This document shows positions 24,733 through 34,235 of a stretch of DNA of 64,000 nt, piece by piece. The translations under genes were made by a program, and so were the position numbers. The stretch covers positions 96,001-160,000 of the forward strand of contig CAVVXN010000005.1 of NCBI GenBank assembly GCA_963752285.1, given 5' to 3'. The notes beneath the pieces are model-generated. The model had not been told where the DNA came from, did not search any database, and saw only the letters and a program-made list of their open reading frames with translations. Within the stretch, counting starts at the first letter, position 1, and each line of letters begins with the position of its first letter. This DNA is from an uncultured Planctomycetota bacterium. Its GTDB lineage: Bacteria > Planctomycetota > PLA2 > JAEUHO01.

Positions 24733-27072
24733 TCAGCGCCCACCCGTCGCCTCCTTCCCGAGCCACGGCTTCGTCGCGCGCTGCCGGGCCTGGACCGTCT
24801 GCTCGAAGGTCGTCCACGTGTCCGGGCGGGCCTCCGGCTTCGGGACCTCGTCCTCCGGGATGCCCAGTCGGGCGGCCAGGCGCGTCAGCCCGTCCTGGAA
24901 GCCCCGGACGACCGTCGGGTCGCGCCACCCCGCGACGGCGCGGTCCCAGAACGGGAAGACGTCCGGGAGGTCCATCTCGCCGAGGTCCGAGAGCACGCGC
25001 GCACGCCCGTCCGACGGGAGGCCGTCGTACCCGCGGACGACGTCGTCGAAGCGCGCCTTCCGCCGCGCCAGCTCGTGGATCCACCGGGCCGCGAGGTCGG
25101 GCGCGGGACCCTGTCCCCAGGTCCATCCGACCGAGCTGGGCGACACGCGTCGCACGAGCTCCCGGAACGGGTCCAGGCGCCCCGGCGCGAGGTACAGGCG
25201 GTAGACCTCGGCCTGCTCGCCCGAGAGGGTGCGTTCCTGCTTCGCGTACCACGCGGCCAGCCGGTCGGCGGTCGCCCCCGGGTCGGGCCCGCCGCCCGCC
25301 ACCGCCAGGAGCGCGTACTGGAGGAGCTCGGCGTCCTCGTCGAACGCGTCGAGGAGCGCCCACGCCTCCTTCGCGGCGGCCTCGGGGTCGGCGGCGCCGA
25401 GGAGCAGGAGCCCCGCCGTGCGCTCGCTGGAGCGGGAGGACGCGAGGAGGTCTCGGCCGAGGTCGGCGGCGCCGGGCGGCCGGGCGTCCAGGTACCGGAC
25501 CAGCTCGAGCGCGTCGTCGGGGAACCGGCGCGAGGCAACGATCTCACCGGCGCGCTCCGTGGCGCGTCGATGGAGCTCGGCCTCCCGATCGTAGGTCTCC
25601 TTCGTGGTGGCCCCGGTGGTGAGTCCCGCGCCCGAGCAGAACGCGAACCGGGCGGCCTTGCGGAGCTCCGCCGACGGGTCGTCGAGCAGCGCGAGGAGCG
25701 CGTCGGCGACGGGAGGGACCTTCGTGGCCCACGGCGCGAGCTTCGAGACGAGCTGGGCGCGGTACCGGGCGGTGAAGGCGCCGTCCCCGAGACGAGACGC
25801 GAGCCGGGCGACGAGGGCCGCGTCGAGCGGGACCTGCGACACGCCCTCGAGCGAGACGGTCTCGTCGGGACTCGCGGCCGCCTCGGACTCCGCGTCCCGG
25901 ATCGCCGCGAGGACCTCGGAGGAACGGAGGTGGGGCCCGACGGCGTCGAGGAAGCGGGCCACCGGGTCGCGCTCCTCCGGACGCGCGGCGAGGAGGCCCC
26001 GCGCGAACCGGGCCGCGCGCTCGGGGGTGAACAGCTCGCGGAAGCGATCCAGGGCGCCGTGCTCGAAGAGCCACAAGGACGTGGGCTCGTGGGCGAAGAC
26101 GTAGACGAATCGGTCCGGATCGCGGTCGGCGATCGCGAGGAGGATCCGGGAGGCCAGCTCGGACTCGATCGCGTAGGGGAGCGCCGCCTCGAGCTCGGGG
26201 AGCGACGTCTTCGGGTCGTCCGTCGCGCGGGTCACGGCGCGGACCCGCTCGTCGTCGTCCGCGCCCGAGACGAGCACCTCCGCGAGCGAGGGCGGGGACG
26301 CCGTCGGGACCGATCGGCCTGCCTCGTCGCCCGCGATCCGGGAGAGCGCCTTCTCGGCGGACGCACGAAGGGCCCCGTCGGGCGCCGCGGCCAGATAGGA
26401 GCGAAACGAGATCTCCGCGTGTCCCGGCTGCCCGAGCGCGAGGTACGCCTCGCCGGTCCAGTACGAGGTCTCGGGGAAGCGGACGGCGAGGTGCGCGGCC
26501 TGGAGCAGCTCGCCGATCGCCTCGGCGGCGCGGCCCGTCCGGAGGTGCGCCAGGCCGCGCAGGTAGTGGAGCGAGGCGGCCGCGGTCCGGTCCGCGGCGG
26601 GCCGCGTGGCGGGAGCGGGTCGGCCGAGGCGCTCCGCGACCGCCGCCGCGGCCGTTCGCGCCGCGCCTTCGAGGTCGCCGGTCGCGTCCACGGTGCCGAC
26701 GAGCGCTCCGTCCGGGACGGAGAGGACGCGGAGCACGTAGCGCCAGCGACCCTCCTCGAGCGCGACGGTGCCCGTCACCGCGCGGGTGGCGGCGAGGAGG
26801 TGGCCGATCCGCACCGCGTCGGTCGCGCCGGCCGCCGTGGCGAGCCCCTGTTCGGCGAGCGCGCGGTCCACGTCCGCGCGGTCCACGAGCGTGACGCCCT
26901 CGATCGTGCCGAGCGAGGCGGAGAGCACGTCCGTCGCGGCAGGGCCCAGGTCCGACGACGTGGATCCTCCGGCGGCCTCGAGCGGCCACACGAGCAGGGT
27001 CGCGGCGTCGTCCGCCGCCGCCGGTCGCGCGAGGCCCAGGATCGCGACGAGTAGGAGGAGCCGGCGCCTCAC
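24733..27072 (-). CDS. Secreted CsgG-like + TPR + HEAT-like repeat protein
   Basis: GTG at 27072 starts a complete signal peptide (RRRLLLLVAILGLARPAAA); LVDRADVDRALAEQGL (CsgG-like); HYLRGLAHL...YWTGEAYLALG (TPR). It is the 3' half of the 1791-aa track ORF. Confidence 0.65.
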   Translation of the reverse strand: MRRRLLLLVAILGLARPAAADDAATLLVWPLEAAGGSTSSDLGPAATDVLSASLGTIEGVTLVDRADVDRALAEQGLATAAGATDAVRIGHLLAATRAVTGTVALEEGRWRYVLRVLSVPDGALVGTVDATGDLEGAARTAAAAVAERLGRPAPATRPAADRTAAASLHYLRGLAHLRTGRAAEAIGELLQAAHLAVRFPETSYWTGEAYLALGQPGHAEISFRSYLAAAPDGALRASAEKALSRIAGDEAGRSVPTASPPSLAEVLVSGADDDERVRAVTRATDDPKTSLPELEAALPYAIESELASRILLAIADRDPDRFVYVFAHEPTSLWLFEHGALDRFRELFTPERAARFARGLLAARPEERDPVARFLDAVGPHLRSSEVLAAIRDAESEAAASPDETVSLEGVSQVPLDAALVARLASRLGDGAFTARYRAQLVSKLAPWATKVPPVADALLALLDDPSAELRKAARFAFCSGAGLTTGATTKETYDREAELHRRATERAGEIVASRRFPDDALELVRYLDARPPGAADLGRDLLASSRSSERTAGLLLLGAADPEAAAKEAWALLDAFDEDAELLQYALLAVAGGGPDPGATADRLAAWYAKQERTLSGEQAEVYRLYLAPGRLDPFRELVRRVSPSSVGWTWGQGPAPDLAARWIHELARRKARFDDVVRGYDGLPSDGRARVLSDLGEMDLPDVFPFWDRAVAGWRDPTVVRGFQDGLTRLAARLGIPEDEVPKPEARPDTWTTFEQTVQARQRATKPWLGKEATGGR

Positions 27073-29634
27073 CGCGGGATCTCCGTGGTGAGCACCCACG
27101 TGCCCGTGCCCCAGGAGGTCGTGACCAGCGTGCTGCACGGTGTCGTCGGGGCCGACCCACACGTCCTTCGGCATCGACTCGGCCTCCGTGAGGTGCGGAC
27201 CCGTCCACGCCGCGCCGTCCCGGGACGTGAACAGCCCGAACGCGCCGTCGGCCGTGCGATCCCAGAGGACCAGCGTTCCGTCGGGGGCACGGCCGAGGAC
27301 GGGACCCCAGAGGTAGCGAGAGAGGACGCCGGCCGTTCCCGTAACGGCGAGCTCCTGTGGCGCGCCGGCGCGGGGCCACCGCGTCACTCGGATCTCCCGG
27401 CCCATCGCGCGCGACGCGACGAGGACGGCTCCGTCCGGCAACGCGACGGCGGTGCCTCGCGCATCTTCGCCCACGAGCAGACGGGGTGCGCTCCAGGTCA
27501 TGCCGTCGGACGTGTCGATCTCGTAGATGCCGGCGCCGTCCGGCCCCTGGGCCGAGCGGAGGATCACCCGGCTCTCGCCGAGGTCACCCTCGAGGATCTG
27601 CACGTCCCCCTCGGCGAGGAACACCTGGGTCCCCGCCGCGGGTCCCAGGTAGGTGCGTTCCGCGTCGTGACCACGAATCGGGAACGCGATCCGCCGTGGC
27701 CACGACCATTCGACGAGATCGTCCGAGGTGGAGGCGTAGAGGCACGCCCACGTCGGGTTCCCCCGATTGGAGATCCAGACCAGGAGCCACCGTCCGTCGG
27801 CCATTCGCCCCAGGGCCGGGTGATCGTCGTACGCCGAGGACGACACCGAGAGCCGCCTCGGCGCGCCGAACGTCCGGCCGCCGTCGCTCGACGAGACGAG
27901 CCAGAGGTCGGGGTCCACCCACGGGTCGAGATGGGCCGGCGGGTCGTCCGGCTCGCCCCACCAGCTACCCCGTGCCGCCGCCAGCACGACGTGGACCGCG
28001 CCCTGCGGCCCCGTGGCGACGCGCAGGTGCTCGATCGGGCGGCCGAGCTCCGGCGCGAGCGGTGCCGCCCCGCCGATCGAGGGCGCGGGCCCGTCGCGCG
28101 CGTGGGCTCCCTCGGGGACGAGCTCGGCTCGCGTCTCGATCGAGTCGAGTCGGACACCCCGGGGCTCGGCCGAGACCCACACCTGGGCCACCGGAGGAGA
28201 GAACCGCATCGTCCGATCGACCGGCTCGGCGTCCCCGGCGGGAACGGTGATCTCCGTGACGACGTGCTGCGGACCGTTTACGCCGCCCCATCCGGACAAG
28301 AGGAGCGTCCCGGAGGATGCGTCGTCGTCTCGATGCGCCCCGACGTGCCAGTCGAGTCGCGAGATTCGCAGCCCGCGCGCGGCGAGGATCTGGAGCCCGG
28401 CGGGGAGGGAGGGGCCGCCCGGTTGGGGCGCCGGATCGACGGAAAGCGAACACCGCGGTGCGCTCGCGGACAGGACGACGCAGCCCGGAGGCACGGGTGT
28501 CGTCGGATCGACGGCGCGGACCGCGCGCGCGTACAGGGCGGCGTAGAGTCCGCCCAGGCCCGCGGCGACGCCGTGGAGCTCCTCCCAGGCATGGGTGGAC
28601 CAGAGGGCCTTCATGCGCTCGACGCTGGCGCTCCTCGCGAGGTCGGGCTGGAAGTGCACGTCGCGGGCCTGGCAGAGCTTCCATCGCGCGTAGACGAAGG
28701 CGAGGGCGTCGCTCCAGCGACCCTTCCGAGCGAGATCGAGCGCCAGGCGGCCGACGAGCGCGGAGGTCTCGGGGTGGTAGGGGAAGCGCTCGATGGCTCG
28801 CGCGAGGGTCTCCTCCGCGCCGTCAGCACGGCCGGGCTCTCCTTCGATCGCATCGGCGGCGAGCCGGGCCGCGCGCACGACCGCGTTCGGGTCGCGCGAG
28901 GTCCGGACGAGCTCCTCCCACGTGAGGGCGGCGTGCGCGTGCTGACCGAGATCCTGGTAGAGCCGCCCGAGCGCGAGCGCGGCGTCGGTGAAGGCCGGCT
29001 CCGCCTCCAGCGCGTGCGTCAGCCCGACGAACGCGCGGGGGTAGTCCGCGTCGTCCTCGGCGGCCAGTGCCCGGTAGTACGCGGCCATCGCCTCGACCGA
29101 GACCGGCGGCAGCAGGACGGCCGGCTCGAGCCCCTCGGCGCCGAAGACGGCCTGCGTCATGTCCGCGACGAGCCGGCCGAGCGTCGGGACCGTGCCGTGG
29201 AGCCGCCGGCTCCGAAGCGGCGTCCCCGCGTGCGCGTCCACGACCGCGAGGTCCACGTCCACGTCGTCGCCGTTCGCCGCGAAGGTGCCGAACACCGCCC
29301 AGTCGGCGTCGGCGACCCGCGCGAGGCTCGTCGCGTCCTCGGGTCGGAGGAGGCCCACGGCCGCGAGGTCGCGCTCTCGCAGCAGCTCGGCGACGCCCTC
29401 GCGCTCGACCACGACGACGCCGGGCTTCCCGGCGAGCGCGCCCGAGAGGAGCGTCCCGAGCGCCGAGCCGAGCCAGTCGTGCGCGGGGTCCTCGGCCCGG
29501 GGCGCGAAGCGGAGCACGGCGACCTGCAGGGTCTGGGGCCGGGCCGCGGGTTCGCCGTCGGCCCGGGCCCGCGCGGTCGAGACGAGGAGCGCGAGCACGA
29601 GACCGGCCCCGGCCCACAGCGCGCCCTTCGCCAT
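27069..29634 (-). CDS. Secreted CsgG-like + TPR + BNR/Asp-box (sialidase-like propeller) protein, with an apparent +1 indel near 27130
   Basis: Signal peptide MAKGALWAGAGLVLALLVSTARA; VVEREGVAELLRE (CsgG-like); TPR helices; Asp-boxes SSDGGRTF, TSDDLVEWS, TSDGMTWS and SRDGAAWT. The natural end appears to be TLVTTSWGTGTWVLTTEIPR* at 27069. Confidence 0.65.
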
Positions 29635-29981: not shown

Positions 29982-30003
29982 TGTCGGTGGTTCGTTTTAT
30001 GTT
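29982..30003 (+). promoter_or_regulatory. PafBC/RecA-NDp-type DNA-damage-inducible promoter motif
   Basis: TGTCGG-TGGTTCGTTT-TATGTT = TGTCGG-N10-TAnnnT, including the extended TGTCGGTG, 40 nt before the ATG at 30044. Confidence 0.65.
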
Positions 30004-30043
30004 AGGTGGATCGGACCGCGCTACCACCTTGGGGGATCTCCTC

Positions 30044-32521
30044 ATGCAAGCCGTCGAAGACGTCCGCCGCGCCCTCTCGTCGATCGACCTCGTCCAGGGC
30101 CTCTCCATCCACCACGTCGAGACCCACCTCGAGATGGGGCTCCGCCTCGGGGACGTGGGGCAACGCGTCCTCGCCTTCTACCTCCTGGAGATGGAGACGC
30201 GGGGGCTCCACCAGGCGCTCGGCTACGCCACGACCGCCTACTACGCCGAGGACCGGCTCGGTCTCGACCGCCGCCGAACGGCGGAGCTGCTGCGGGTCGG
30301 GCGACGGCTCCTGGAGCTCCCGGAGATCGACCAGGCCTTCTGCGAGGACCGGCTCCCGTGGTCCAAGGTGCTCCTCCTCTCGCGGGTCGTCGAGCCCGCG
30401 CACGAGGCGGCCTGGCTCGCGCGCGCGCTCGCGCTCACGAAACGGGACCTGGAGCAGGAGGTCCGCGTCGTCAGGCCCGGCGCGCCGCCGCCCGCGTCCG
30501 GGGAGCGGATGGGACTTCCGCAGGTCCGCTTCACGGTCGAGATGAAGGTCTCGCCGCTCGTCCAGGCGAAGCTCGAGCAGGCGAAGGCGCGGGTCGAGTC
30601 GGAGCGCGAGACCCCGATCGGCGACGCGGAGCTCCTGGACGTCGTCCTCGACACGTTCCTCTCCTTCGAGGACGACGGGACGATCCCCGGGAAGAAGCGC
30701 GTCGCGCGTTCGCTCTACCAGATCGTGCTCCGCGAGGAGGCGTGGCCCGACGAAGGCACGCCGGGGGGAGTACCTGGAGAGCAGGGCCGAGACGAAAGTG
30801 ACGAAAGCGACGGAGGCGGCGGCGCGGCGCCGGACGACCGGACCCGCGAGTCGCTGGGGGACGCGAGGCCGCCGGGGGACGCGAGGCCGCCGGGCGACGC
30901 GAGGCTGCCGGGCGACGCGAGGCTGCCGGGCGACGCGAGGCTGCCGCCGATGCCGCGACTCCTCCTCGAGAGCGGCATCCCGCTCGCCGAGGCGTGGAGC
31001 GCGGCGGTGCGCTGCGACGCCGAGGTCTCGGGCTGCCGGCAGGACGTGCCCCACGAAGAACGCGACCCGAAGACGCCGCGCTGGATGCGGAGGCGGGCGC
31101 TCGCGCTCGACGGCCACCGGTGTCGATCGTGCGGCTCGCGCTACCGGCTGATGGTCCACCACGTCGCCTTCCGGCGCCGAGGCGGGAAGACGAGGCTCCA
31201 GAATGTCGTGACCCTCTGCGTTCGCTGTCACGCGCTGGTCCACGAGGGGCTCCTCGAGGTCGAGGGACGAAGCGGAGGGGAGGTCCGGCTCGCGGGGATC
31301 GACGGGCGGTCGATCCGGACGCCCCTCGCGCCCGCCGACCGGAGGGCGGTGATCGGGATCCCGTCCACCCGCAACGGGTCGGAGTCCGACGGACGGGCGC
31401 GCGCCTCGCCCGCGCCTTCGCTCCCGCCGCGCGTGGCCCTCGCGGACGTGCCCCTGGAGATCGACGCCGCGTGGTGGCACCGGCACCGGGACCTCGTCCG
31501 GTTCCGGAGCGAGACGGAGGTCGAGCTCGAACCGGGACGGCCCAAGGCCGAAGCGACGAACGAGGCGCGTGGCGAGGCGGGCCCGCCATCGCAAGCGGGC
31601 GTGTCCTTCGAGGAGGCGTTCGAGGGTCTCGTCGGGCAGGAGGACCTGCTCCGGCGGATCGAGGTGGCCTTCGAGGGATCCAAGGCGCGGGGCCGCGCGG
31701 TCCCGCACCTCCTCCTGGTCGGTCCCCCGGGGACCGGCAAGACCACGATCGCCCGGCGTCTCTCCACGCTCGAAGGCGCGCGGCTCGTGGAGGCGAATGG
31801 CGCGTTCCTGGACGCGCCGGGTTCGCTCGTGCGGATCCTCGCGGGACTCCGGGACGGCGACGTCCTCTTCGTGGACGAGGTCCACGCGCTCGCGCCGGCG
31901 GCGCAGGAGGTCCTCTACCCGGCGATGGCCGAGGGGCGGCTCGGGCTCGTGTTCGGACGGGGATCCGAGACCCGGACGGTCTCGTTTTGGCTCCCGCGCT
32001 TCACGCTCGTCGCCGCGACGACGGAGGAAGCGAAGGTGTCGGGTCCGCTTCGCTCGCGGTTCGGGCTCGTGGAGACGCTCGGGTTCTACGAGGAGGCCGC
32101 GCTGGTGCGGCTGGTGGACGAGCACGCGCGAAGGGAGGGCGTAGACCTCCCGGTGGAGTCGGCCGAGGCGCTCGTCCGCGTGGCCCGCGGGACGCCCCGG
32201 GAGGCGCTCCGGCTCCTCGAGCGGACGCTCGACCTCGCGGCGGCGGAGGGCGTGCCCCGGGTCTCACCGGAGATCGTAAAGGAGGCGCTCCGGATGCTCG
32301 GGTTCGACGCGGACGGCCTGAACCCTGCCGAGCGGCGCTACCTCGCGCTGCTCCGGGGGCGTCGCGGACCCGTGCCCCTCGCGCGGCTCGCGCGGATGCT
32401 CGGGACGAGCGCCGTGGCGGTGGCGCGGCAGATCGAGCCGTACCTGTGTCTTCGAGGCTTCGTCCAGGTGACGGCGATGGGTCGGCTGGCGTCGTACCGG
32501 CCGCGGATCGCGCAAGCCTGA
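30044..32521 (+). CDS. DUF222-like - HNH endonuclease - RuvB-like AAA+ ATPase fusion protein (825 aa)
   Basis: N-terminus LGYATTAYYAEDRLGL...LLELPEIDQAFCEDRLPWSKV (DUF222-like). HNH at about 31085..31250: CRSC...VHHV...GG...NVVTLCVRCHALVH. RuvB from about 31600: VGQE, HLLLVGPPGTGKTT, LFVDEVH, EVLYPAM, FTLVAATT, PLRSRFG, RGTPR, IEPYL...GR. Confidence 0.9.
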   Translation: MQAVEDVRRALSSIDLVQGLSIHHVETHLEMGLRLGDVGQRVLAFYLLEMETRGLHQALGYATTAYYAEDRLGLDRRRTAELLRVGRRLLELPEIDQAFCEDRLPWSKVLLLSRVVEPAHEAAWLARALALTKRDLEQEVRVVRPGAPPPASGERMGLPQVRFTVEMKVSPLVQAKLEQAKARVESERETPIGDAELLDVVLDTFLSFEDDGTIPGKKRVARSLYQIVLREEAWPDEGTPGGVPGEQGRDESDESDGGGGAAPDDRTRESLGDARPPGDARPPGDARLPGDARLPGDARLPPMPRLLLESGIPLAEAWSAAVRCDAEVSGCRQDVPHEERDPKTPRWMRRRALALDGHRCRSCGSRYRLMVHHVAFRRRGGKTRLQNVVTLCVRCHALVHEGLLEVEGRSGGEVRLAGIDGRSIRTPLAPADRRAVIGIPSTRNGSESDGRARASPAPSLPPRVALADVPLEIDAAWWHRHRDLVRFRSETEVELEPGRPKAEATNEARGEAGPPSQAGVSFEEAFEGLVGQEDLLRRIEVAFEGSKARGRAVPHLLLVGPPGTGKTTIARRLSTLEGARLVEANGAFLDAPGSLVRILAGLRDGDVLFVDEVHALAPAAQEVLYPAMAEGRLGLVFGRGSETRTVSFWLPRFTLVAATTEEAKVSGPLRSRFGLVETLGFYEEAALVRLVDEHARREGVDLPVESAEALVRVARGTPREALRLLERTLDLAAAEGVPRVSPEIVKEALRMLGFDADGLNPAERRYLALLRGRRGPVPLARLARMLGTSAVAVARQIEPYLCLRGFVQVTAMGRLASYRPRIAQA
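30857..30946 (+). repeat. In-frame 18-bp tandem repeat x5 (GDARPP x2, GDARLP x3)
   Basis: GG(G/C)GACGCGAGGC(C/T)GCCG repeated five times. Confidence 0.95.
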
Positions 32522-32750
32522 CGGAGGGAGGGAGGAGGAGCGCCCGCACGAACACGAGCAGGGAGCGGGAAGAGCGGGCCCCCGCACGGTAGAGGGCGGC
32601 CGACCAGGTCGCGCGAGCGAGGGCGGGGGATCCCGGCCTCGGGCGCGCGGGCGTCGGGCGTCGCTCGGCGCGAGCTTGGTGGCCGAGCTCGGTGGCTCGG
32701 CGTGCGTCGGGCGGCTCTTTGTAAAGACGCGCGCGCGCCGAACGTTCGGC

Positions 32751-32771
32751 AAACCCGACCGGCGGGTCGGG
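32751..32771 (-). terminator. Candidate intrinsic terminator of the hem operon
   Basis: Minus strand CCCGACC-cgcc-GGTCGGG-TTT, starting 13 nt after the hemN stop. The U-tract is short. Confidence 0.4.
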
Positions 32772-32783
32772 ATTGGGGCCGGT

Positions 32784-34235
32784 TCAGACCGTGCGGCTGT
32801 AGCGGGGGCGGGTCGGGCCTTCCTCGTCGCGGCGGGCTCGTTCGGCGCGGAGGTGCGCGTCGAAGACCATGCACACGTTTCGGACGAAGAGGCGGCCGAG
32901 CGGCGTGAGGCGGATGCCCTCGGCGTCCACCTGGACGATGCCGTCGTCGGCCATCGCCCGGAGCTCCTCGGCCTCCTCCGGGTAGCGCTCGCGCCAGTCA
33001 CCCCCGCCCGCGGGGATGTCGGGAAGGAGGTGCGTGCGGCCGACGCGACCGTTGCACATGAGCTCCTGGATGATCCGGCCCCGGAGCTCGTCGTCCGGCG
33101 TACGTCGGTAGCCGCGGTGTACGGGGAGCTCACCCGCCTGGATCGCGTGCTCCCACTGGGTGAGCTTCGCGTGGTTCTGCACGTACACGCCCCGCGCATC
33201 GCCGATGCCCGTGATCCCGAGCGCGACCATGTCGGTGCCCGCGCGCGTGTGGAAGCCCATGAAGTTCCGGTGGAGCGTCCCCTCCGCGCGCGCACGCGTG
33301 AGCTCGTCGTCGGGGCGGGCGAAGTGGTCCATGCCGATGAACTCGTAGCCCGCGCCGACGAACGTCTTGACGCCCGCCTGGAACAGCGCGAGGCGTTCGC
33401 GCGCCTTCGGGAGCGCCGCCTCGTCGATCTTGCGCTGGTGGGCCTTGAGCCACGGCACGTGCGCGTAGCCGAAGAGGCTCACGCGGTCGGGCCGGATGCG
33501 TTCGACCACCACGTCGAGCGTCTTCTGGAAGTCCTCGGGCGTCTGGTGGGGGAGTCCGTACATGAGGTCCACGTTGACGCTCGTGAAGCCCTCCTCGCGG
33601 CAGAACTCCACCAGCGCGAGGGTCTGCTCGACCGACTGCACGCGGTTGACGGCCTCCTGGACCTTCGGCGTGAAGTCCTGAACGCCCATGCTCACACGCC
33701 ACCAGCCGAGGCGACGGAGGGTCGAGACGTGCTCCCGCGTGGTCACGCAGGGATCGACCTCGAGCGCGATCTCCGCGTCACCGAGGATCTCGAAGCGATC
33801 GGCGATCTTCGCGTGGATCTGCTCGAGCGCCTCGGCGGGAAAGTACGTCGGCGTCCCGCCGCCCAGGTGGAGCTGCGCGAGGCGGCGGTTGCCCGCCGAG
33901 AGCGCGTCGGCGACCAGGTCGATCTCGGGCAGGAGCGCGGCGAGGTACCGGTCCACGATCGCGCGGTCGCGGCTCACGATCACGTTGCACCCGCAGTAGG
34001 TGCACATCGCCTCGCAGAAGGGGAGGTGGAGGTACAGGCTCAGCGGCGGCGCGTCGGGACCGCGCGACCGGTAGACCTCGAGCGCCTCGGCGGGGCCGAT
34101 CTCGGGTCCGAAGTGCGGCGCGGGCGGGTACGAGGTGTAGCGCGGACCCGGGCGGTCGTAGCGCGGCGTGAGCTCGACGGCACGCGCGAGGTCCGCGGCG
34201 TCGGGCGGACGATCGGGGACGCCGGGCTCGGTCAT
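32784..34235 (-). CDS. hemN: Oxygen-independent coproporphyrinogen III oxidase (radical SAM)
   Basis: GPRYTSYP, LYLHLPFCEAMCTYCGC, HLGGGTPT, IGMDHFA, LHRNFMG. Confidence 0.95.
   Translation of the reverse strand: MTEPGVPDRPPDAADLARAVELTPRYDRPGPRYTSYPPAPHFGPEIGPAEALEVYRSRGPDAPPLSLYLHLPFCEAMCTYCGCNVIVSRDRAIVDRYLAALLPEIDLVADALSAGNRRLAQLHLGGGTPTYFPAEALEQIHAKIADRFEILGDAEIALEVDPCVTTREHVSTLRRLGWWRVSMGVQDFTPKVQEAVNRVQSVEQTLALVEFCREEGFTSVNVDLMYGLPHQTPEDFQKTLDVVVERIRPDRVSLFGYAHVPWLKAHQRKIDEAALPKARERLALFQAGVKTFVGAGYEFIGMDHFARPDDELTRARAEGTLHRNFMGFHTRAGTDMVALGITGIGDARGVYVQNHAKLTQWEHAIQAGELPVHRGYRRTPDDELRGRIIQELMCNGRVGRTHLLPDIPAGGGDWRERYPEEAEELRAMADDGIVQVDAEGIRLTPLGRLFVRNVCMVFDAHLRAERARRDEEGPTRPRYSRTV

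Follow-up and report, generated by a model that had tools for sequence, protein, structure and literature searches.

Why would a bacterium that has RuvA, RuvB and RuvC also carry a RuvB fused to a nuclease? RuvB is a host motor that RuvA loads onto Holliday junctions. The question is raised by a single gene in a 64,000-nucleotide stretch of DNA from an uncultured planctomycete (contig CAVVXN010000005.1, positions 96,001 to 160,000; hereafter the window), which encodes in one chain of 825 amino acids (aa) a helix-turn-helix (HTH) domain, a zinc-binding HNH nuclease, a small linker domain and RuvB. The answer to which we give a little better than even weight is that this gene is a damage-induced, minimal selfish element, made up of a promoter, one open reading frame (ORF) and short palindromic sites; it would belong to the wider DUF222-HNH lineage, would have captured a planctomycete ruvB, and would bind its palindrome, nick the DNA and let RuvB drive strand exchange.

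In the labels used below, G stands for genomes (G000 being the source genome, 4.64 Mb and 89% complete), C1 to C5 for contigs and L for loci. G000 holds three full fusions on three contigs, the other two at 55% and 36% identity to the window copy. The first-pass annotation of the window, made from the sequence alone, had pointed out that ruvA and ruvC are absent from it and had called for a copy count and a search for a separate canonical ruvAB; ruvB (C5:725781-726716), ruvA (C5:1763314-1763493) and ruvC (C4:123273-123719) are all present elsewhere in the genome, mutually unlinked. Because three dispersed fusions exist beside these separate genes, the fusion is not the host's RuvB. The gene and its parts are laid out as follows.

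29982..30003, plus strand: PafBC-type (RecA-independent DNA-damage) promoter, TGTCGG-N10-TA-N3-T, by consensus match
29990..30004, plus strand: direct repeat GTTC-N7-GTTA, overlapping the promoter
30044..32521, plus strand: fusion gene, 825 aa, with the order HTH domain, zinc HNH, small linker domain, RuvB; single stop-free frame, Pfam, AlphaFold
30098..30487, plus strand: likely ParB/Spo0J/KorB-like HTH DNA-binding domain (aa 19-148), remotely DUF222-related; structure alignment and Foldseek
30521..30733, plus strand: conserved extended segment and two helices (aa 160-230; helices 171-188 and 194-206 in the models), possibly a dimerisation unit; family alignment
30740..30973, plus strand: disordered linker with an 18-bp coding repeat in 5.3 copies (30852-30946); predicted local distance difference test score (pLDDT) below 50 for aa 233-310, tandem repeat
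31049..31303, plus strand: zinc-binding HNH nuclease domain; Pfam and conserved residues
31439..31534, plus strand: small family-specific folded domain with a WW motif (aa 466-497) between HNH and RuvB; pLDDT about 95, W477 in 65 of 87 and W478 in 62 of 87 aligned proteins
31616..32494, plus strand: captured RuvB motor with large and small ATPase domains, pre-sensor hairpin and winged helix; Pfam and residue conservation

An assembly artefact or a chance read-through was ruled out as the origin of the fusion by the two further full-length, single-frame fusions in G000 and by homologues with the same layout. The frame is free of stops and its G+C content at third codon positions lies between 0.86 and 0.98 in all full 50-codon blocks, linkers included, so the initial description of one uninterrupted ORF with G/C-ending codons across the linkers holds. 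Pfam places HNH at residues 360-400 (E 2e-8), RuvB_N at 525-678 (5e-41), AAA_lid_4 at 682-755 and RuvB_C at 758-817, and every motif that had been quoted for the HNH and the three RuvB domains stands where it was said to be. A PDB sequence search of the protein returned RuvB only, over 524-819, and the AlphaFold model (mean pLDDT 81) comprises a helical N-region, a disordered linker, the HNH, the small extra domain and RuvB. HNH and RuvB families were both present in 23 of the 27 matches of a homologue search. A reassembly of raw reads (four DNA runs, 7-9% of words) gave scattered short contigs, none bridging HNH to RuvB, and is uninformative either way.

All three parts occur in 116 of 173 collected proteins, and 109 non-redundant relatives share the layout; for this set, which underlies the tree and the RuvB residue counts, a long RuvB match was required, duplicates were removed and loci were added. 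Loci holding all three domains keep them in one frame in 22 of 25 cases, the other three being frameshifted. Relatives with a name all come from uncultured Planctomycetota (13 of 13 loci; an Atlas cluster of 123 members). The N-terminal domain was found in 17 of the 29 genomes of the family of G000, in one to five copies and patchily inside genera (1/3, 2/3 and 1/6), and in 33 of 301 genomes of the phylum, where genome incompleteness limits claims of absence; the gene was not found in 12 of the 29 family genomes, including 7 of the 11 best-quality ones.

Does the RuvB part still resemble a working motor? Residues K566, E612, T659, R672 and R719 are present in all 109 fused sequences, across less than 50% identity, as is T/S567; D611 is present in 108 and R814 in 98. 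The catalytic set of RuvB comprises Lys65, Thr66, Asp110, Arg171 and Arg218 in PMC9477746, to whose Walker, sensor and Arg-finger residues the fusion residues were mapped via the E. coli alignment with an offset inferred from motifs. The nucleotide gate pair Arg21/Glu128 is found in all 45 canonical RuvBs and has no counterpart in this protein (q522 and q629); the first-pass annotation had spoken of a complete RuvB, which is correct for the three domains and their motifs, but neither residue of the gate pair is retained. Among the 109 fusions, the gate Arg motif is in place in 20, and the Glu is kept in 19 of these 20 versus 15 of the 89 others, so that the joint loss of the two residues looks like remodelling, though kin are not independent. 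By a simple NG86 calculation of omega (the ratio of non-synonymous to synonymous rates), two close pairs gave 0.076 (35 synonymous and 7 non-synonymous changes) and 0.13 (6 and 2); distant pairs gave 0.24-0.49 versus 0.12-0.32 for canonical ruvB, with third positions saturated. Judged by these substitutions, the RuvB part is under purifying selection. The broken frame, the uniqueness to this genome and the relaxed selection on RuvB that had been named beforehand as damaging outcomes did not appear: the frame is intact, the fusion occurs in many genomes, and omega in the close pairs rounds to 0.08 and 0.13.

In the RuvB tree, the 109 fused domains form one clade (support 0.81) that groups with 39 planctomycete RuvBs (0.99). 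A planctomycete ruvB was thus likely captured once; this is likely rather than proven because the tree has only two non-planctomycete outgroups and long branches. The fusion protein falls below both curated RuvB cut-offs, PRK00080 and TIGR00635 (260.5 versus 282 bits and 245.5 versus 299.05 bits). It resembles the RuvB of the RuvAB-RuvC resolvasome (PDB 7pbl, 9dx3, 1in4) in having RuvB_N, lid and winged helix, Walker A and B, sensor 1, Arg finger and sensor 2, and differs from it in being the C-terminal part of an 825-aa fusion, multicopy, without the gate pair and in a clade of its own beside the canonical host ruvB.

The other end of the protein suggests a DNA-binding anchor. VIA-align of the N-domain model gave Spo0J 1vz0 (Z 9.9, root-mean-square deviation [rmsd] 2.6, 104 residues aligned), ParB-parS 6s6h (Z 9.2, rmsd 3.7, 114 aligned) and KorB 1r71 (Z 7.7, rmsd 3.3, 107 aligned); ParB/KorB entries make up four of the top five rows, and the best Foldseek rows are ParB/Spo0J/Noc at E 0.08-0.5. 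Residues 19-148 of the model thus likely adopt a ParB/KorB-type HTH DNA-binding fold, an assignment short of proof because the fold is helical and the Z values are middling. Unlike the known proteins, the alignment covers the HTH region only and not the CTP-binding N-domain, with 14-21% identity. By their entry titles, the known domains bind palindromic sites (parS, the KorB operator), and the palindrome associated with the fusion is presumably unlike parS. The N-terminus had been called DUF222-like. Pfam DUF222 has no match on the 825-aa protein and matches 4 of 27 aligned family N-domains (best E 4.4e-6); the relation therefore stands as a remote one only. A scan of genome contigs with the single N-domain sequence gave no match. 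In the HNH domain, C360, C363, H373 and H396 are conserved in 87 of 87 aligned proteins, H372, C392 and H400 in 86, C395 in 82 and N387 in 81; the catalytic parts of both HNH and RuvB look alive in these alignments. The small linker domain was considered as a mimic of RuvA domain III and gave no HMM (hidden Markov model) match.

A second tie to RuvB came from relatives that lack it. The lead to these sisters was a Myxococcota cluster in the Atlas in which HNH occurs with RuvA_C (47% of 70 members), and RuvB-less relatives from the N-domain profile search end in a three-helix tail. Single sister tails fall below the Pfam cut-off (E 0.04-0.07 for two of six). Aligned together, they match host RuvA domain III by hhalign (95.8%, E 6.9e-9), with RuvA 7x7p_C as the top PDB match (E 0.0019). 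Eighty relatives of one sister all match the fusion's N-domain profile, 16 of them matching Pfam RuvA_C and 18 DUF222, and their JGI names include 'HNH endonuclease/Holliday junction resolvase RuvA-like protein'. Of 261 proteins, 32 have the RuvA domain III tail, 146 have RuvB and none has both, in a count that used a tail HMM derived in part from sisters and a sister search restricted to 238-760 aa. According to PMC9477746, RuvA uses domain III to bind RuvB and to stimulate its ATPase. The lineage thus appears to be linked to RuvB along two routes: some members are fused to it, and others carry a RuvA domain III hook that would bind it. This coupling is not universal, because many relatives have neither RuvB nor the RuvA tail. 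An N-domain tree (147 columns, long branches, unreliable root) allowed no conclusion on whether the fusion or the tail came first. As a separate observation, all eight RuvA-domain-III-type HNH genes of G240 (L135-L142) lie in 70-bp tandem arrays of 4-50 copies, on both sides in seven, and at L141 the left and right array units are related and mutually inverted; the arrays are possibly target sites or products of the element.

The promoter links the gene to DNA damage. The PafBC consensus is tGTCgg(N10)tA(N3)T in PMC8635444 and PMC8151990, and the motif at 29982-30003 confirms the damage-type promoter that had been proposed. G000 has 12 such sites versus 0-5 for other spacings; they include sites before each of the three fusions, before recA and ssb, and before two short relatives without RuvB, and a PafC-type HTH-WYL-WCX activator gene lies at C5:740161-741270, lexA being also present. 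In relaxed form, the motif stands before 21 of 35 fusion loci, a set that has 12 strict matches and includes some close kin, versus 3 of 26 sister loci. The fusion gene is thus probably damage-induced through a PafBC-type promoter. Because RuvB-less short relatives use the same promoter, it cannot separate host genes from passengers. The GTTC-N7-GTTC-type repeat occurs at 13 of 35 fusion loci and at 9 of the 26 loci of the sisters, where chance would give 0.013 per 450 bp; we take it to be a candidate LexA-type operator, and an exact copy is not evident upstream of lexA itself. The 12 sites amount to a PafBC-type damage regulon in a planctomycete, including recA (named by Pfam) and ssb, topoisomerase VI B, thyX, a LysM gene and a ferritin-like gene (read from sequence).

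The candidate sites of action are short palindromes at and around these genes, of which the window holds two.

32710..32780, minus strand: copy of an approximately 65-bp dispersed repeat, with a hairpin (32754-32771), the 14-bp palindrome GCCGAACGTTCGGC (32737-32750) and a TCTTTACA tail; repeat HMM
27865..27878, no strand assigned: second, imperfect palindrome GCCGAACGTCCGGC inside the upstream gene, of uncertain membership; weak repeat-HMM match only

The 14-bp palindrome lies 216 bp past the fusion stop and is also found 3' of the other two fusion copies of G000. The 65-bp repeat has 15 strong HMM matches in this genome (E < 1e-9), two of them behind the C1 fusion copy, the HMM having been built from 11 of these; among the 11 aligned copies, the inner palindrome pair is A-T in five and G-C in five, with symmetry kept. 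Across 29 loci, 23 palindrome sites fall in 89.6 kb at the genes versus 7 in 269 kb of flank, an approximately tenfold higher density that is partly circular because the patterns were read off these loci, genome-wide counts being the independent part; the palindrome is present at 13 of the 29 loci. Genome-wide, GCCGRAYRTYCGGC occurs 19, 28 and 39 times in the group G000, G004 and G009 (each with at least three gene copies) versus 0-7 times in the other 38 genomes, and none of the 25 genomes without a detected gene exceeds 7 copies. G236, from another family, has its own palindrome of the same outline, GGCGCARYTGCGCC, in 18 copies, 7 of them at its three genes, versus 0-3 in 25 others; this form was not found in seven other gene-bearing genomes. 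A third form is present at each end of locus L055. GCCGRACGTYCGGC and the 65-bp repeat are candidate DNA sites for the N-terminal region (aa 1-232).

Several further features of these repeats were recorded. Clusters of the 65-bp repeat stand alone in G000 without a fusion nearby (C1:643050-643582, C5:1981782-1982873, C5:2052449-2052624, C3:96285-96338 and C5:1496155-1496207), the one at C1:643050-643580 being a tandem array of 5 x 115 bp. In G009 (L150-L157, L163), dispersed repeats of 200-420 bp, belonging to at least two families, contain the palindrome in pairs spaced 38 or 90 bp apart. An RNA guide or noncoding RNA was rejected, Rfam having given one sub-threshold match, inside the ORF, and the folding of the 65-bp repeat is no better than that of shuffles (z -1.7 and -1.0). 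A 135-bp repeat upstream of the G007 copy (L037:8907-9040) was rejected as part of the element, as it has terminal inverted repeats and no palindrome; it matches each of G007 and G024 in at least two dozen places, some of them arranged head to tail, was not found in G020 and is probably a miniature inverted-repeat transposable element whose co-occurrence may only reflect kinship.

Has the gene itself moved? The window copy stands alone, as the first-pass annotation noted: 410 bp separate it from a divergent BNR/TPR gene whose ATG is at 29634, and on the other side the convergent hemN has its stop at 32784, 262 bp away. In four of four relatives, different genes follow hemN and no copy of the fusion gene lies in its 3' flank; the congener G001 has a single frameshifted copy elsewhere and a hemN end without gene or repeat. 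Further upstream, at 24733-29634 on the minus strand, two large secreted-type genes (CsgG-like, TPR, BNR repeats) stand behind a pair resembling an ECF sigma factor and its anti-sigma factor; the searched gene of this region, the left neighbour, has a match in one of five relatives only, and a weak one, so the fusion borders a variable region. Two copies in G009, 97.1% identical over 2425 bp, lie at unrelated sites; the stretch common to both runs from shortly before the promoter to a palindrome axis, beyond which they diverge. Five sister copies in G120 share promoter and ORF only, two of them ending inside a terminal hairpin. Among 53 scanned of 77 candidate neighbour ORFs (20 loci), nothing was shared and, apart from one HNH_2 gene and one insertion sequence (IS), there was no defence gene or cluster. 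The flanks of the g7 copy were not found joined in G020. Upstream of the C2 fusion copy, at a distance of about 1.2 kb, is an IS3-type transposase (L002:3437-4603).

Other relatives in the same genomes are shorter. Four in G000 (L073-L076; C1:172672-174378, C5:1725299-1727272, C5:2143409-2144707 and C5:1809710-1810936) have the N-domain and a diverged HNH without RuvB or RuvA tail, with the PafBC promoter in two and the GTTC-type repeat in three. Four more frames match the N-domain profile weakly (C1:577663-578916, C2:500722-502020, C4:69617-72229 and C5:1363757-1366255); the one tested hit no Pfam family, and the four are probably another multicopy element. In G126, close relatives with N-domain and HNH only are found at L143-L147, of which L145-L147 are mutually 92-94% identical. 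L143 has the linker domain and the palindrome and lacks RuvB, which suggests that RuvB may be lost secondarily.

If the gene is a selfish element, its cycle may be pictured as follows. DNA damage would switch it on through the host PafC-type WYL activator, for which both motif and gene are present. The ParB-like HTH would bind the 14-bp palindrome and anchor the complex, and the zinc HNH, with its residues intact, would nick DNA near it. RuvB rings, covalently tethered instead of being loaded via RuvA, would then pump duplex against this anchor and produce strand exchange or branch migration, a role with which the conserved ATPase core and the selection on it are consistent. Through strand exchange during damage repair, new sites would receive a copied or moved element together with its palindromic mini-repeats. 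The sister elements may reach the same end by recruiting host RuvB with their RuvA domain III tail. More tentatively, and with somewhat less than even confidence, we propose a new class of mobile element that works by nicking and motor-driven strand exchange: its HTH-HNH part would replace RuvA and RuvC at its own palindrome, RuvB would be fused or borrowed through a stolen RuvA domain III (sisters in Planctomycetota and Myxococcota), and its activity, timed to damage, would spread non-autonomous palindromic repeats and arrays.

The sisters, the palindromes and the distribution shift the reading toward a mobile element, and of the three proposals of the first-pass annotation, the selfish HNH element is the one favoured, by genes that are multicopy, dispersed and patchy, by unrelated neighbours, by the minimal unit of promoter and ORF and by the palindromes; for classical homing, which formed part of that proposal, no cognate empty site was found. 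A good deal weighs against mobility. No clean empty site was seen, and both flanks were never found joined in a relative; target duplications and terminal inverted repeats were not seen at the junctions of the G009 pair and the G120 sisters; the G009 pair is the only recent fusion pair seen, and both members are frameshifted, possibly through assembly errors. Most within-genome copies are old (36-55% protein identity in G000), the copy of G007 and G024 has a common downstream flank and therefore descended vertically, and searches of phage and plasmid collections returned ordinary ruvB matches only, none covering 80% of the protein, with no N-domain match. The palindrome was not seen at 16 of the 29 loci, and 13 of 16 element-bearing genomes lack a clear GCCGRAYRTYCGGC expansion, among them G016 with five copies, G011 having a variant form. 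Residues fixed in canonical RuvB are mostly lost in the fusions (R615 is kept in 8 of 109, R661 in almost none and the gate motif in 20 of 109), so that the motor may work differently, and purifying selection and a promoter common to recA and ssb fit a host function equally well.

Such a function, the first of the proposals of the first-pass annotation, would be that of a domesticated, damage-inducible, one-gene processor of junctions or stalled forks, independent of RuvA and RuvC, whose extra copies are ordinary paralogues. We hold this to be unlikely, though it keeps appreciable weight, no empty site or terminal repeats having been found. The rare promoter shared with recA, ssb, topoisomerase VI B and thyX, the strong purifying selection, the single frame at 22 of 25 three-domain loci and the vertical copy in G007/G024 would all be expected of it; but the host keeps ruvA, ruvB and ruvC, many relatives do without the gene (12 of 29 in the family, 7 of the 11 best-quality genomes among them), there is no conserved position and there are no repair-gene neighbours, the N-domain resembles sequence-specific ParB/KorB domains and not the junction-binding core of RuvA, and RuvB-less short relatives use the same promoter. 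Distinctly less probable is a site-specific chromosome tool that amplifies, resolves or rearranges dispersed palindromic repeats as RAYT does for REP, the gene itself rarely moving. The expansion of repeats only in gene-bearing genomes, the stand-alone tandem clusters, the arrays around all eight G240 sisters and the absence of such a palindromic repeat near the only Y1 transposase of G000 (on C1) would suit it; however, the tested patterns are not expanded in most element-bearing genomes, a G009 palindrome lies about 700 bp from a Y1 transposase, so that another mobiliser is possible, and this explanation overlaps that of the selfish element, differing mainly in who benefits. Defence systems often pair an HNH with a motor ATPase, and presence is patchy; yet a translocating anti-phage or anti-plasmid nuclease, the third of the earlier proposals, is very improbable: neither neighbours nor PADLOC supports it, the matches of the latter being weak (best E 4.7e-6 over 68 ATPase residues), the scanned neighbour ORFs contain no defence genes apart from the HNH_2 gene and the IS, and the genes are dispersed singly under a damage promoter. 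That RuvB rides along with an HNH element as a decaying passenger and has ceased to work as a motor seems scarcely credible; long branches, the loss of several canonical arginines and glutamates and the RuvB-less close relatives in G126 point that way, against which stand five catalytic residues kept by all 109 sequences although these fall below 50% identity, omega of about 0.1 in close pairs and the loss of the gate residues as a pair, which looks like remodelling.

How does a RuvB-coupled selfish element compare with known systems? The REP13E12 or DUF222-HNH repeats of actinobacteria are alike in their helical N-domain and zinc HNH, their dispersed multicopy genes and a remote sequence link. 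REP13E12-type genes are listed as repetitive elements in PMC10589994, and HNH genes are damage-induced in M. tuberculosis according to PMC8151990. These repeats differ in that no RuvB or RuvA part is described there, whereas here RuvB follows HNH and the protein misses the DUF222 model. The damage-induced M. tuberculosis genes are, we presume, DUF222 genes, and to our knowledge the mode of spread of such repeats has not been established. RAYT is an HUH/Y1 transposase that shares with the fusion the arrangement of one nuclease gene with short palindromic repeats beside it and genome-wide (here in G000, G004, G009 and G236, with no palindrome seen at 16 of 29 loci); the fusion differs in its HNH, HTH and AAA+ motor without a Y1_Tnp match, its multicopy state and its damage promoter. 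Free-standing HNH homing endonucleases are selfish single genes that rely on recombination-repair intermediates and home to a single cognate allele with the help of the host's recombination enzymes; the fusion genes, by contrast, lie at unrelated sites with flanks that vary from copy to copy, and the element would supply or recruit a branch-migration motor. Helitron/IS91, IS21 IstB and Tn7 TnsC are mobile systems with their own helicase or AAA+ ATPase, and rolling-circle Helitron/IS91 types likewise lack terminal inverted repeats, but their nucleases (HUH, DDE) and ATPase clades are others, and we know of none that uses RuvB. An IscB/OMEGA RNA-guided HNH was rejected (38 versus 175 bits, HNH part only, with no RuvC match and no Rfam-level RNA), as was a classical DDE IS, there being no transposase family match and no terminal inverted repeats or target duplication at the junctions of the G009 pair or the G120 sisters. 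A search of full-text literature, whose coverage largely leaves out subscription journals, found no description of an HNH-RuvB fusion. What appears new is therefore the RuvB-coupled design, while the HTH-HNH part probably descends from a known family.

Whether it is a mobile element or a stand-alone repair enzyme, the system is undescribed as far as we found, and its 14-bp site, nuclease and motor, joined in one 825-aa chain, lend themselves to direct assay. Natural RuvB variants that have lost the Arg21/Glu128 pair and kept the catalytic residues offer a test of the published RuvAB nucleotide cycle. Two separate ties to RuvB suggest what repeats of the DUF222-HNH type probably need in order to act and, if the proposed new class is true, it would provide the first mechanism for the wider family of DUF222-HNH and REP13E12 repeats.

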